IMG/VR virus record: IMGVR_UViG_3300050019_000211 | Coordinates: 1-51,893 of that record | DNA length: 51,893 nt | Reading direction: 5' to 3' (one strand) | DNA from: a virus | Taxonomy: Duplodnaviria > Caudoviricetes | Shown here: piece after piece, positions 9,456 through 14,191 of the stretch | How the letters are laid out: each line of letters opens with the position of its first letter | Position numbering within the stretch: the first letter of the stretch is position 1 | The notes under the pieces: generated by a model | Database searches by the model: none | Told to the model about the DNA's origin: nothing | Seen by the model: the letters and a program-made list of their open reading frames with translations, nothing else | Position numbers and translations under genes: made by a program

Positions 9456-10412
9456 TCAGGCGGATTGGAACTCCAGCGGGCTGCGCACGCTCAACGCCTC
9501 CGCGTGCAGGTAGCCCATCGTGGTTTCGAGCGACTTGTGGCCCATCGCCTGCTGGATTGCGCGCGGGTTCTGGCCGCCGTTCAAGCAATGCGTCGCGTAG
9601 GCGTGGCGCAGTTCGTGCGGCTTGATGTCGAGGCCGATCCGGCGGCAGGAATTTTTAACCGCCCGCTGCACGCAAGATTCCAGCATGTGCCAGCGCACGA
9701 TCTCGCCTGAGCGCGGGTCGTTGCACGGCGCGATTTGCGGGAAGAGCCACGCCCATTGCCACGACGAGGCGGCACGTGGATATTTCCGGGCGAGCTGGCC
9801 GGGCAGTTTGATGGGCACCTGCGCCGCCGCGTCGCGGCGCCAAGTGACGCGCGCGTTTTCGATTTGCGCCTGAATTTCACCGATGACCGGGCAGGGAATC
9901 GGCACGACGCGATCCTTGCGGCCTTTAGCTTGCCGGATGATGAAGCGGCTGCCAGGAATATCCACGTCGCGGATTCGTAAGCTCAACGGCTCGGTGATCC
10001 GCAGGCCGCAACCATAAAGCAATTTGACGACCAGCCGGACCGGGTAGGCACTTTCGTCGCGCACGTCCTTGAGCAGCGCGCGGACCTCTTCGACCGGCGG
10101 GGCGCGGCGAACGAAGGCGGCGCGCTTGGCGCGGAGGGAATTAACGCCGGAAAGTTTATGGCCGAGACATTCCTGGTAGAAAAAAAGAAGCGCGTTGAAC
10201 GCCTGATTTTGGGTGCTGGCGGAAACGTCATCACGGGCGAGCATGGACAGGAACGATTCCAGTTTTCGTTCGCTCGGCCAGGAGGCCGGAAGTTTTGCAA
10301 GATAGCTGCAATATCGGCGCAGCCAGCCGGCGTAACTCTGCTCCGTTGACAGCGAGAAATGCTTACGCCTGGCTGTATCCGTGAGTTTCTGGATGGCTGC
10401 GTCGTGGTTCAT
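9456..10412 (-). CDS. intI: integron integrase (IntI-family tyrosine recombinase)
   Basis: SAM-like N-domain (HFSLSTEQSY, VSASTQNQAFNALLFFY); catalytic R (YGCGLRITE), K (KGRKDR), HxxR (HELRH), H (MGH), Y (TTMGY); integron-specific insertion LPGQLARKYPRAASSWQWAWLFP...DPRSGEIVRWH. Confidence 0.95.
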   Translation of the reverse strand: MNHDAAIQKLTDTARRKHFSLSTEQSYAGWLRRYCSYLAKLPASWPSERKLESFLSMLARDDVSASTQNQAFNALLFFYQECLGHKLSGVNSLRAKRAAFVRRAPPVEEVRALLKDVRDESAYPVRLVVKLLYGCGLRITEPLSLRIRDVDIPGSRFIIRQAKGRKDRVVPIPCPVIGEIQAQIENARVTWRRDAAAQVPIKLPGQLARKYPRAASSWQWAWLFPQIAPCNDPRSGEIVRWHMLESCVQRAVKNSCRRIGLDIKPHELRHAYATHCLNGGQNPRAIQQAMGHKSLETTMGYLHAEALSVRSPLEFQSA

Positions 10413-10430
10413 GATATACTTACACGTGTA

Positions 10431-10450
10431 CGCCTAATCATTGTTAGGCG
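10431..10450 (+). other. attI-like site
   Basis: CGCCTAA-TCATT-GTTAGGC resembles the attI1 simple site (CCCTAAA-ACAAA-GTTRRRY). It lies about 20 bp from the intI start, has no attC hairpin arm before it, and marks the left boundary of the duplicated cassette. Confidence 0.8.
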
Positions 10451-10667
10451 ACAGACAGCGGTTGTGGTCGCCGGCTAGTCGCGTGGCCATTTCCTTTGTG
10501 AGTTCGCTCATTATCAGTAGTCTGTTTCCTTGTAGGACGCGCCAGCCGATATGCGGGATTTCATCGCGGCGATAGCTTTCAATTTTCCAGCGCAGTCGCC
10601 TAACAACCCGCCGGACCTGACGCGGGATACGGCTTGAGGCGAGTTTGGTTGTCTTGTTCGGTTTCAT
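10434..10667 (-). CDS. cassette A gene, hypothetical (77 aa)
   Basis: Starts in the attC R1 loop and stops (TAG) inside attI; duplicate of 12537-12818 up to SPN. Confidence 0.8.
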   Translation of the reverse strand: MKPNKTTKLASSRIPRQVRRVVRRLRWKIESYRRDEIPHIGWRVLQGNRLLIMSELTKEMATRLAGDHNRCLSPNND

Positions 10668-10696
10668 AAAGTTCAGCGCAGGTCAGCTTTTATGTT
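10443..10696 (+). repeat. direct repeat copy 1 of the 251-bp cassette (copy 2 at 12594-12847)
   Basis: Offset 2151 bp; one substitution seen (TAGTCTGTT vs TAGTCCGTT); identity starts and ends at GTT. Confidence 0.95.
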
Positions 10697-10700
10697 AGCT
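10598..10700 (+). other. attC site R1
   Basis: R'' GCCTAAC 10598-10604, spacer AACCC, GCCGGACCTG pairing with CAGGTCAGC, spacer TTTTAT, R' GTTAGCT 10694-10700. Confidence 0.9.
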
Positions 10701-11062
10701 GAAAGGCGCTTTCCACGTTTGAAGGCTTTCCAGTAGTTGTTGCTTCGGCGCTTCCATGCCGCCTTTTTTTGCGGACTGACCGCAAAGCTAGAGAAGTCGT
10801 CGCGTTTTATCATGCCCATCGCCCAGCCGCCGTTGCCCTCCATCACACATTCCGCGCCGGGGATTGCACCTTCCACGAATCCACAGCACTCGACGGCTTC
10901 CTGATACGTCAGGAAGTCGCGGCCATTTGGCCCGTCGTTTGAGTTCCCGACGAAGTAAGACAGGTCATCGTGCTTCTCGTCGCCATCCTCGTAGATGTCG
11001 GGATATTCTTTTTCCACGACACCGAGCTTTGCCTTTTTCGGCAGCCATATTTGCACTTCCAT
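10673..11062 (-). CDS. cassette B gene, hypothetical (129 aa)
   Basis: Ends ANIKADLR, which is encoded by the right arm of attC R1. Confidence 0.75.
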   Translation of the reverse strand: MEVQIWLPKKAKLGVVEKEYPDIYEDGDEKHDDLSYFVGNSNDGPNGRDFLTYQEAVECCGFVEGAIPGAECVMEGNGGWAMGMIKRDDFSSFAVSPQKKAAWKRRSNNYWKAFKRGKRLSANIKADLR

Positions 11063-11087
11063 AAGTTTGATTTTGGTTGTTGTTTTC

Positions 11088-11177
11088 AGCTAACAAATCG
11101 TTGCAGGAAACGCCTATTGGACGCCTCCAGCGAGTCCGGGAGCGCCAGATGCGGCGTTCCTGAACTCTGCGTTCGGC
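11088..11177 (+). other. attC site R2
   Basis: R'' AGCTAAC 11088-11094; GTT(G)CAGGAA(A)CGCC pairs with GGCGTTCCTGAAC; R' GTTCGGC 11171-11177. Confidence 0.92.
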
Positions 11178-12818: not shown

Positions 12819-12847
12819 AAAGTTCAGCGCAGGTCAGCTTTTATGTT
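12594..12847 (+). repeat. direct repeat copy 2 of the 251-bp cassette
   Basis: See 10443-10696. Confidence 0.95.
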
Positions 12848-12851
12848 CGGC
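12749..12851 (+). other. attC site R7 (same as R1 up to the crossover)
   Basis: R'' GCCTAAC 12749-12755; R' GTTCGGC 12845-12851. Confidence 0.9.
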
Positions 12852-13258
12852 GACATTATCCACACGGCTAGGCATTGTTTGCATTGGTGCCATTTATAGC
12901 CGCCGGTTGCGCCAAGACATTCCAGAGGCTTCATGCAGCTTGGACAGGTTCCGAGGTTCACAATCTTCTCCTGGTGGGGAGACATCATTGCAGTTTTGAG
13001 CATGTCGCCGAACAAGTCGCTGATGCCAACGTGCTTGGTTCCTGCCGTTTTGGACGCCACAGGTTGTTGACCGCCTGCCCTCGCGTTCCATTGTTCGATG
13101 GCGCTCTTCTCGTTGATACCTTCTGGGCCGGTCACGTTGCACATCGAGCACCAGACGTTTTTGCGAGGCCGCGTTGGGTAGCCGGTTTGTATGATCATCA
13201 GCATGTCACGGTCTTTTTCGCCGCACCACGGGCAGGCTATCGCATCGGTTATTTTCAT
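12824..13258 (-). CDS. cassette H gene: Lar-like (restriction alleviation) Zn-finger plus a second Zn-ribbon
   Basis: MKITDAIACPWCG...VWCSMCNVTGP....EKSAIEQWN resembles the Lar family; C-terminal CPSC...CKQC; tail PNIKADLR. Start taken at ATG 13258. Confidence 0.72.
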   Translation of the reverse strand: MKITDAIACPWCGEKDRDMLMIIQTGYPTRPRKNVWCSMCNVTGPEGINEKSAIEQWNARAGGQQPVASKTAGTKHVGISDLFGDMLKTAMMSPHQEKIVNLGTCPSCMKPLECLGATGGYKWHQCKQCLAVWIMSPNIKADLR

Positions 13259-13303
13259 ATTTTTTCTTGGTTCGACGCACGCGGCATAGCTCCGTCGTTT
13301 GAC
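13007..13303 (+). other. attC site R8, unusually long (297 bp)
   Basis: R'' GCCGAAC 13007-13013; arm GCT(G)ATGCC(A)ACGTGC pairs only with GCACGCGGCATAGC at 13277-13290; R' GTTTGAC 13297-13303. Confidence 0.8.
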
Positions 13304-13800
13304 ATCTCTTCGCATTTCTCCGGCAGCATGGCCCGGAAGCCGGTTGATTTGATGCGCTGGAATATAGTTTGCTCGCCGTTCCAGACGTAGGGCAGGAACA
13401 CTTCAGCGTATTCGGCCTGGTGCATTTGAATCATGGACATTTGGACTTCGACCCAATCTTGGATTATTTTCCACGCCGTTCGTTCCGCCTGGTCTTTGAA
13501 ATCGGCGCGTTTGAGTTTCTTCCGGCTTTGCCATTTCATCTTACCATCTTCGCCGAGGTTATCGCCGGCGTAATTCAGCCAGAGCGCGTCTTGCGCTTTT
13601 TCCACGTCGGCCGGCAGGCGCACGGTCAGCTTTGGCGTGTTGGCATCCGGCTGGATTGAGAACGTGATCGCACCGATGCCGCCAGCGGTGCTGACATATT
13701 CTTTCGTGATGCCGCTGACGCCACACTTTATCAGCACTTGCTCGATGCGATAGATGGTCTGACCCACCGGCACATTGGACGTGTAGTTTTTTAGGAACAT
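13255..13800 (-). CDS. cassette I gene, phage-type hypothetical protein (181 aa)
   Basis: KNYTSNV...QAERTAWKIIQDWVEVQM...EVFLPY; tail SNDGAMPRASNQEKI from attC R8. Confidence 0.8.
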   Translation of the reverse strand: MFLKNYTSNVPVGQTIYRIEQVLIKCGVSGITKEYVSTAGGIGAITFSIQPDANTPKLTVRLPADVEKAQDALWLNYAGDNLGEDGKMKWQSRKKLKRADFKDQAERTAWKIIQDWVEVQMSMIQMHQAEYAEVFLPYVWNGEQTIFQRIKSTGFRAMLPEKCEEMSNDGAMPRASNQEKI

Positions 13801-13823
13801 GGTTTTGAAAATTCGGCCATGAT

Positions 13824-13921
13824 GTCGAACAACGTGCCGGACCTAACCGCCGATAGCGCCTTCAGTTCTGCTTCTCGGTTGACGCGCCTTAGTCGGAGGC
13901 AGGTCAGCACAAGCGTTTTGC
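13824..13921 (+). other. attC site R9
   Basis: R'' GTCGAAC 13824-13830; GCCGGACCTAACCGCCGA pairs imperfectly with TCGGAGGCAGGTCAGC; R' GTTTTGC 13915-13921. Confidence 0.85.
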
Positions 13922-14142
13922 CGCACCGGGCGACGCATCAGGCGGACTATCGCGTCGAGCACGTCACTCACATTTACGCCCTGCGTCCGCGTTCGTTCAA
14001 GTGGTGTTAGCTCCATCAGAACGGCGTGTCCGTCAAACAACTGCATTGGAATCGGCTCTACAGAAACGCGGCATGGAGCGCAACTGCCCTTAGCCTTGGG
14101 CTTCGGCAACGGTTGCAGGATAGCAATTGATTTTCGTTTCAT
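13843..14142 (-). CDS. hypothetical protein reading into attC R9
   Basis: 99 aa; tail QNACADLPP... is attC-encoded; start lies within the degenerate hairpin 14061-14191. Confidence 0.55.
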   Translation of the reverse strand: MKRKSIAILQPLPKPKAKGSCAPCRVSVEPIPMQLFDGHAVLMELTPLERTRTQGVNVSDVLDAIVRLMRRPVRQNACADLPPTKARQPRSRTEGAIGG

Positions 14143-14191
14143 ATTTTTGCTTTCTGGTTTTCGGCGGGCAGTGGCTCATCACCGACTTCTG
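14061..14191 (+). other. degenerate attC-like hairpin at the array end
   Basis: CAGAAAC then ATGGAGCGCAACTGCCC pairing with GGGCAGTGGCTCAT; R' position reads ACTTCTG and lacks GTT. Confidence 0.5.

Follow-up and report, generated by a model that had tools for sequence, protein, structure and literature searches.

The locus described here raises the question of whether an integron found inside a phage genome is a device of the phage itself or a piece of a bacterial chromosome carried along. Integrons are taught as bacterial gene-capture devices. The stretch analyzed, referred to as the window, is the whole 51,893-nt IMG/VR virus record IMGVR_UViG_3300050019_000211 (Caudoviricetes). Between 9456 and 14192 it contains a gene for an integron integrase (intI), a putative attI recombination site, and a row of cassettes bounded by attC sites (Table 1). 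An initial annotation, made from the sequence alone, had read this region as a complete integron and as the phage's own device, not a captured host array. We consider it likely that this is a genuine, recently active integron that belongs to the phage and is not a host fragment.

The integrase had been described as an intact IntI with the integron-specific insertion, and this description holds. The protein matches the NCBIfam model TIGR02249 "integron integrase" with 265.3 bits against a cut-off of 265, over profile positions 2-313 of 315. None of the 14 control genomes reached this cut-off. The scores with the Xer models are far under their cut-offs (XerD, 108.9 vs 329.6 bits; XerC, 106.1 vs 335.15; XerA, 128.4 vs 220). 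The best solved structure is VchIntIA (2a3v), which aligns in a single stretch over residues 15-304 (E 4.6e-44). A XerC-like chain aligns in two stretches, 21-186 and 247-304, omitting residues 187-246. This segment (LPGQLARKYP...WQWAWLFP...DPRSGEIVRWH), covered only by the VchIntIA alignment, is the IntI-specific insertion. In an alignment of 13 relatives, the insertion stretch and the residues R138, K163, H266, R269, H292, and Y301 are invariant or nearly so. The six residues align with the same motifs in 2a3v, and we take them to be the catalytic R-K-H-R-H-Y set. The intI gene is the sole gene of the record with a PF00589 match. The reading as XerC/XerD or an ordinary phage integrase was rejected, based on the Xer scores and the presence of the insertion.

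The putative attI lies 20 nt from the ATG of intI, in agreement with the attI-like site first placed at about 20 bp, and the first cassette begins 31 nt from intI. In 8 of 10 related arrays of the antisense type described below, the left box is kept as GYCTAATCA up to the G|TT, and the sequence downstream differs at each locus. A variant left box is present in two of the related loci, L002 and L007. The crossover would take place between G10443 and T10444. Between the intI ATG and the left box, positions 10421-10430 form a perfect palindrome, TACACGTGTA. Relatives carry a GCTAACGGGT-like sequence at this place, and the palindrome is not conserved as such.

Eight units on the + strand open with a GTT core, at 10443, 10694, 11171, 11635, 11892, 12204, 12594, and 12845. 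The matching AAC cores end at 10604, 11094, 11538, 11795, 12127, 12483, 12755, and 13013. In these eight consecutive cassettes, each GTT core is perfectly complementary over 8-12 nt to the AAC core of its own unit. R'/R'' pairs of at least 8 nt number eight in the 4.3-kb tile of the array, vs 0-3 per tile in the remaining 11. The sites, from AAC to the next GTT, are 90-124 nt long and share one build, in which a 7-nt R'' is followed by a mismatched spacer of 5 nt, 3 bp, a bulged G, 4-6 bp, a bulged A, and another stem. The arm alignment puts the extra bases on the left (R''-L'') arm at every site.

One site differs in length. The attC at 13007 is 297 nt long, since its right arm, which shows the G and A bulges of the other sites, is at 13277-13303. 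Two joints from other samples end at 13296 plus 2 nt and back this arm. The alternative right arms at 13100 and 13276 were rejected in favor of 13303, based on the arm alignment and the joints. The site itself stands as first named, with its right arm placed as given here.

For an independent comparison, 20 attC sites were taken from six other loci (L002, L003, L004, L007, L008, and L021). In a 21-pair structure, 79.2% of cells pair, vs 62.6% in shuffles (0 of 500 reach the observed value) and 30-43% with the partner slid. The covariation score is 0.412 vs 0.158, and in the inner helix 13 of 14 pairs show changes on both sides. RNAalifold alone found only 7 pairs; the 21-pair structure was supplied and then tested against these controls. 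A covariance model built from the 20 sites, without any window sequence, was used to search the window with filters off. It recovers all nine named sites on the + strand, eight of them at E 2e-4 or lower. At 13007 the hit is truncated, with a wrong short right arm (E 0.025). All 15 window hits with E below 0.1 are on the + strand, and the best hit on the - strand has E 0.45. In nine further loci, six of which are of the sense type, 47 of 47 hits are on the strand opposite intI. The search also points to a tenth, degenerate attC-like site at 14060-14192. No Rfam family matched in the window, and Rfam holds no attC model as far as the search shows. Nine consecutive attC hairpins, extrahelical bases on the left arm, and a leading R' complementary to its own R'' had all been claimed earlier, and the three claims are borne out.

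Extra bases on the RYYYAAC-bearing arm mark the attC top strand. The + strand is the attC top strand because of the arm that carries the bulges, the duplicate bounded by GTT (see below), and the position of attI between intI and the first unit. The polarity of the array is therefore classical, with the attC sites divergent from intI.

Two kinds of evidence concern the movement of cassettes. The first is a perfect 254/254-nt repeat, 10443-10696 and 12594-12847, which comprises the gene portion of the unit and the site to its right, with GTT at both ends. One copy is the first cassette, and it begins exactly at attI, the place where integrons take in new cassettes. The two genes differ only in the tail encoded past the border (...SPNND* vs ...SPNAKLTHS...). 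The second is a set of contigs, assembled and not reads, from four other peat runs that were placed on 8800-15000. Seven joints were reported. In four of the seven, found in contigs from three other peat samples, both ends coincide with predicted G|TT borders, allowing for the stated ambiguity. Cassettes 5 and 6 are absent at 11890>12593 (run X4), cassette 6 at 12201>12592 (X2), cassettes 6 to 8 at 12202>13296 (X3), and cassettes 7 and 8 at 12592>13296 (X4). Such joints are moderate evidence and not proof, because assembly graphs break at such branch points. The joints 10447>10603, 11891>12220, and 13031>13280, and a record joining 9645 to 14285 with 17 other letters, are off the cassette borders and were not used as support. 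Together, the exact copy at attI and the joints at cassette borders point to recent movement of cassettes. The array is a complete integron that was probably active recently.

The record is of the linear class, and CheckV estimates its completeness at 91%. PHROG matches include a portal protein (49888..51633, E 2e-8), a head maturation protease (48637..49800, E 2e-46), a major head protein (46668..47714, E 3e-10), two DNA methyltransferases, and a primosomal-type protein. The three head genes and the CheckV estimate establish the viral context. A 493-aa (amino acid) open reading frame (ORF) at 7693..9174 shows visible DnaB-like helicase motifs and has a 40%-identical gene in the related viral locus L005. 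Nearly all long ORFs from 1 to 37.5 kb are on the - strand. DnaB and the primosomal protein flank the array on one side, which agrees with the earlier placement near dnaB in a phage gene block. On the other side there is a long run of same-strand genes, beyond which come the tail and head genes. The complete integron is embedded within phage DNA and is not at a phage/host edge. GC content shows no break at the array; it is 0.53-0.59 in the array and in both flanks.

A "lysogeny switch" beside the array, also proposed in the initial annotation, finds no support in Pfam or PHROGs. PHROGs gave no match for any of the four genes tested at 14583-16567, and Pfam gave nothing above its cut-off for 10 genes at 14090-18946.

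The soundness of the assembly bears on a rival explanation, namely that the window is an assembly chimera of a phage and a bacterial integron, or that a Xer protein or phage integrase lies beside repeats other than attC sites. The window does come from a metagenome assembly with an internal 254-nt repeat. Part of 9400-14400 is contained in 20 public runs from 17 studies, all labelled peat metagenome, and at least half of its words are in 11 of them. A contig of run X2 covers 8803-10472, including dnaB, intI, and attI, with zero mismatches where it overlaps the window. A second X2 contig starts at 12826, runs through 15000, and continues for ~3.2 kb, also with zero mismatches in the overlap. 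The chimera reading is contradicted by these flanks, found without a mismatch in another sample, and by relatives of the array in two terminal-repeat genomes. The low Xer scores oppose the second form of this explanation, as does the match of an independently trained attC model to one strand only. We regard the whole of it as extremely improbable.

In classical integrons, cassette genes are on the attC top strand and are driven by the cassette promoter Pc. Here the cassette genes lie on the other strand, and no Pc was identified. A codon model trained on the long genes of the window, with IntI held out as a check, places the best frame on the - strand for 9 of 9 cassettes. The HNH domain of cassette 3 and the Lar-like domain of cassette 8 are both encoded on the - strand, and 0 of 10 ORFs on the + strand had a Pfam match. 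Each cassette gene begins within the loop of its attC and runs on through the R''-L'' arm into its own body. The border is crossed with AAC (Asn) in frame in seven of the first eight cassettes; the remaining one stops at the TAA of GCCTAAC. Most genes stop a few codons into the hairpin arm of the neighbor. Of 42 units counted over the window and nine relatives, 25 have AAC in frame. For units with a stop-free best frame the figure is 19 of 20, and the single departure is a chance pair inside cassettes 8/9.

Related loci were searched in viral contigs and in a collection with one genome per species. The viral scan gave seven candidate stretches, of which five are relatives (L002-L006) with IntI identities of 56-72%. 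In each of them a chain of cassettes starts 29-31 nt from the intI ATG, with nine cassettes in L002, four in L004, two in L003, one in L005, and one in L006, which is cut. The records behind L003 and L005 (G002 and G004) have direct terminal repeats, and that of L005 is rated 100% complete. In L002, genes for the terminase large subunit (E 2e-31), portal protein (4e-64), and major head protein (9e-45) are just downstream of intI. From the species scan the best 80 of 421 relatives were kept, and most of these 80 are from Verrucomicrobiota metagenome-assembled genomes (MAGs). In L007 (1177-3666), L008 (2273-5219), and L021 (173-4934), Mu-like B and Gam genes are upstream of the array. The integron is thus present in at least two kinds of phages, each time in an early accessory region.

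Some of these loci show further features. L007, L008, and L021 hold the IntIs closest to that of the window among MAG contigs. The MAG labels of these short contigs (Polyangiaceae, Burkholderiales) conflict, suggesting that they are misbinned phage contigs. The genes after intI in L021 are host-like, encoding a cytochrome c/HEAT protein and an FAD oxidase, and this copy may be a truncated prophage. In L009, a second tyrosine integrase (6623-7555; phrog_1, E 9e-44) is directly upstream of the array and IntI.

A tree was built from 76 IntIs. That of the window falls with those of L002, L007, and L008 (SH-aLRT 99), and a second group contains L003, L004, L005, L009, L012, and L021 (SH-aLRT 94). 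Both phage-type groups are nested inside Verrucomicrobiota-type IntIs. With L042 excluded for its long branch, the ten antisense-type IntIs were constrained to one clade; the likelihood was 8.6 units above that of the free search, and p-AU (approximately unbiased test) was 0.677. The phage-type IntIs thus group together, and a single clade is not rejected.

The orientation of cassette genes was counted in units bounded by pairs of at least 9 nt, with the same codon score. In the phage type, the antisense counts are 9/10 in L002, 4/4 in L003, 4/4 in L004, 1/1 in L005, 6/6 in L007, 7/7 in L008, 1/1 in L009, and 3/3 in L021. One antisense gene of L007 encodes a Pol-beta-type nucleotidyltransferase. 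In chromosomal arrays on large Verrucomicrobiota contigs, the sense counts are 13/13 in L026, 7/7 in L043, 8/10 in L038, 2/2 in L010, and 3/4 in L044. In build, the attC arms of L026 and L038 match those of the window, including the bulges and the arm that carries them. Because the polarity of the platform is the same and only the gene inside is turned round, the cassettes are not simply borrowed from host arrays. No main-array cassette is shared at E 1e-5 or better between the ORFs of at least 50 aa in the window and the five viral loci (tblastn). The matches are limited to IntI, DnaB (L005), and two genes of the second-array region described below (L003). Among the cassette ORFs of relatives, 8 of 10 have no Pfam match.

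These comparisons bear on the possibility that the array is a passenger, a piece of a Verrucomicrobiota chromosomal integron picked up without a role in the biology of the phage. The nesting of the phage IntIs among those of Verrucomicrobiota MAGs and the attC arms shared with L026 and L038 fit such a capture, and the complete phage integrons in the published main results are mostly captures of this kind (PMC9892861). Against it, the array has an internal position between phage genes, and the same layout is seen in five other viral records of differing phage types. Host arrays are sense and phage arrays are antisense. An attI abutting intI, at +28 to +32, is seen only in the phage type, and GC has no break. 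A passenger is quite improbable on this evidence. The claim that the integron is the phage's own device is supported by the related IntIs with arrays in five viral records, the grouping of IntIs, the antisense versus sense orientation, the phage-like cargo, and the continuous GC content.

Another explanation is that the array is a fossil or has been re-used. The hairpins would then be mainly coding linkers, and IntI would serve otherwise, for example to insert the whole phage into a host integron or attC. IntI is the sole tyrosine recombinase of the record. A lone compact attC-like hairpin of 59 nt is present on the + strand at 38661-38719 (22.1 bits, E 8.5e-4), in a stretch of 37.5-39.1 kb without any ORF of at least 130 aa, and it could be either a stray site or a site for whole-phage insertion. 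In G005, the genome of L021 and a host-like 6.7-Mb Verrucomicrobiota MAG, there are 11 attC hits on six contigs (C2, C15, C16, C19, C21, and C40), so that this MAG has several small arrays or isolated sites. A prophage of Vibrio with attC sites on its flanks has also been reported (PMC9892861). These observations fit a re-used IntI. The signs of recent cassette movement argue otherwise, no prophage junction was seen, and the score of the lone site is low. A fossil or re-used array is unlikely, and we likewise give little credence to an added role in which IntI and the lone attC also insert the phage into host integrons.

The array in the window likely represents a phage-adapted lineage that shuffles small accessory genes, some of them likely for counter-defence (the Lar-like and HNH proteins and the methyltransferases of the second array). 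The hosts are likely Verrucomicrobiota from peat. With a confidence only a little above even, we favor a broader model in which phages, in this case those of peat Verrucomicrobiota, keep an integron lineage that arose once and has its own cassette pool, distinct from that of the hosts. In this model, the genes are backwards relative to attC, the hairpins are translated, and the cut site is usually in one codon phase, which would keep any new order readable and expressed. IntI would bind attC sites as folded bottom strands, here the - strand of the window, and exchange strands at G|TT. Excision would occur by attC x attC recombination, and re-insertion would occur at attI. These steps are expected from established integron biochemistry. 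The array, followed by intI and dnaB, would be read in one direction within the long leftward gene block of the phage, and every cassette would be expressed wherever it is placed. A translated hairpin would serve as the start of its own gene and as the stop for the upstream gene. As the cut site is usually crossed in one codon phase, the operon would be readable after any reshuffle, with the cassettes in early transcription. Since the recombining bottom strand is the non-template strand, transcription may expose the hairpins and tie shuffling to infection.

Several points weigh against this interpretation. The antisense genes break a defining habit of integrons. IntI exceeds the curated TIGR02249 cut-off by just 0.3 bit. 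Minimum-energy folding clearly beats shuffles at only three of the nine attC sites (11532, 12121, and 12477; z -2.5 to -4.6). The bulged bases on the bottom strand would presumably be C and T, vs the usual T and G. The shorter sides of the four border joints are 21-29 nt, under the 31-nt bridging rule. The evidence for mobility consists of assembled contigs and the duplicate, so that recombination is inferred rather than seen directly. The group in the clade test was named after the tree was seen. The promoter scan found 5 sites vs 3.1 +/- 1.8 expected, and the counts of promoters and terminators are within chance. A pair of promoter-like sites at 15315 and 15274, on the - strand, amounts to no more than a hint. 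Annotation of any kind is available for only 2 of 10 cassette ORFs, leaving 8 of 10 without.

Phage integrons in print are few and mostly resemble captured pieces of hosts. If the interpretation above is true, viruses vary accessory genes, probably for counter-defence, by site-specific shuffling of cassettes. It would also mean that an attC hairpin can work while it is translated on the recombining strand. There would be a second, differently built pool of cassettes, which bears on how cassettes are made. Tools that test only the polarity of intI and attC would call such arrays ordinary and overlook the reversed genes.

Table 1. Components of the phage integron in the window. Bits and E values of sites are from the covariance model; z values refer to folding.
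Feature	Position	Strand	Site or sequence	R'/R'' pair	Gene	Remarks
intI, integron integrase, 318 aa, intact	9456..10412	-				TIGR02249; VchIntIA alignment; conserved residues
attI	10432-10449	+	left box GCCTAAT, 4-nt spacer, right box GTTAGGC			sequence; conservation; start of duplicate
Cassette 1, 251 nt	10444..10694	+	attC 10598-10700; 35.6 bits, E 3e-7	10 nt	- strand 10434..10667, 77 aa	identical to cassette 7; best codon frame on - strand
Cassette 2	10695..11171	+	attC 11088-11177; E 1.9e-7	11 nt	- strand 10673..11062, 129 aa, without family	best codon frame on - strand
Cassette 3	11172..11635	+	attC 11532-11641; 59.6 bits, E 2.3e-13	9 nt	- strand 11114..11611, HNH endonuclease (HNH_5, E 9.4e-16)	attC fold z -4.5
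Cassette 4	11636..11892	+	attC 11789-11898; E 1.7e-8	10 nt	- strand 11608..11859, 83 aa	right border used by X4 joint
Cassette 5	11893..12204	+	attC 12121-12210 (intergenic); 56.8 bits, E 1.1e-12	8 nt	- strand 11880..12116, 78 aa	attC fold z -2.8 (top strand), -4.6 (bottom strand); borders used by joints in X2, X3, X4
Cassette 6	12205..12594	+	attC 12477-12600; E 9e-10	10 nt	- strand 12205..12540, 111 aa	stop is TAA of R' box
Cassette 7	12595..12845	+	attC 12749-12851; E 1.7e-9		- strand 12537..12818, 93 aa	second copy of cassette 1; C-terminal tail unlike that of cassette 1
Cassette 8	12846..13297	+	attC 13007-13303, 297 nt	12 nt	- strand 12824..13315, 163 aa; Lar_restr_allev E 2.9e-8, PHROG "Lar-like restriction alleviation" E 3e-7	Lar-like domain encoded in attC loop
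Cassette 9	13298..13915	+	attC 13824-13921; 24.4 bits, E 2.3e-4	leading GTTTGACATC pairs own R'' at 9/10 nt	- strand 13255..13800, 181 aa	nearest Atlas clusters 84%, 63%, 93% viral
Cassette 10, degenerate terminal attC-like site	13916..14192	+	site 14060-14192; 18.9 bits, E 0.006		- strand 13843..14142, 99 aa	no GTT core; right core reads CTTCTGA

The region 10444-14192 consists of nine well-defined cassettes and a tenth with a degenerate end. The cargo that can be annotated is phage-like: the HNH endonuclease, the Lar-like protein, and the 181-aa protein whose nearest Atlas clusters are mostly viral. For cassette 8, the joint 13031>13280 in an X3 contig skips 248 nt inside the long attC and removes the Lar-like loop. 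This joint is weak, with a shorter side of 20 nt. If it is real, the long loop would be an insertion into an ordinary short attC or would be subject to deletion from it.

A second cluster of attC sites is present at 539-2369, ~7 kb from intI, in the same orientation and without its own integrase. Two of its sites are strong, at 539-648 (E 2e-10) and at 1292-1381 (E 2e-9), and two are weak, at 1994-2118 (0.017) and at 2266-2369 (0.09). R'/R'' pairs are seen at 642/1298 (10 nt) and 1375/2000 (11 nt). The genes are on the - strand and include a DNA methyltransferase at 615..1361. The left end of the record may cut this cluster. It would fit the description of a cluster of attC sites lacking an integron integrase (CALIN); the main array, with intI 31 nt from the first cassette, is not a CALIN.

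The initial annotation had stated that integrons are normally described on chromosomes, plasmids, and transposons. This is out of date, as phage integrons have been reported (PMC9892861). Qi et al. (2023, Front Microbiol) screened 10,705 phage genomes and found 3 complete integrons, 1 In0, and 17 CALINs (PMC9892861). Of the complete cases, one is a section of the chromosomal integron of Vibrio anguillarum, located at the edge of a prophage. Another consists of class 1 integrons on a P1 phage-plasmid, and the third is a cryptic prophage of Shewanella whose IntI is of the Shewanella type. The same study found that IntI1 recombined five attC sites from phages. Its main results describe neither antisense cassettes nor an IntI lineage specific to phages nor population variants at cassette borders; its supplements may bear on orientation. 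In the available text of a 2026 study of mobile elements in peat (PMC13323075), integrons and phages are separate classes, and the orientations are regular or inverted-integrase only. Our literature searches returned no description of antisense cassettes in phage integrons. Phage integrons are thus already published, and the antisense architecture and the lineage are unpublished as far as these searches reach.

The integron in the window resembles the cases of Qi et al. in having intI, attI, and attC cassettes on a phage genome, and methyltransferase cassettes also occur in their phage attC clusters (PMC9892861). It differs from their complete cases, as given in the main results, in the IntI group common to several phages, the attI abutting intI, the location of the array in an early block, and the antisense genes. 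With the chromosomal integrons of Verrucomicrobiota MAGs (L026, L038, and L043) it shares the IntI superclade and the polarity relative to intI. The attC build, with R'' of 7 nt, a 5-nt spacer, GCT, a bulged G, 5 bp, a bulged A, and a stem, is common with L026 and L038. In contrast, the genes of these three arrays are predominantly sense, as counted above, and their first cassettes are 42-580 nt from intI, vs 28-32 nt in the phage type. The attC sites of these chromosomal arrays are nearly uniform repeats of 99 nt.

The likeness to class 1 and Vibrio integrons (VchIntIA, 2a3v) includes the IntI fold with the extra domain, the G|TT crossover, the divergence of intI and attC, and insertion at attI, the last of which is inferred from the duplicate. 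The identity with VchIntIA is ~35-40%, as judged by eye in the alignment. Unlike classical integrons, the genes here are on the attC bottom strand and are read towards intI, and the hairpins are predicted to be translated. In having intI and cassette genes in the same direction, the array is similar to the inverted-integrase integrons of Treponema and others (PMC13323075). In inverted-integrase integrons, intI is flipped and shares the strand of attC. Here the cassette gene is flipped, and intI is opposite attC (15/15 hits in the window and 47/47 in the further loci).

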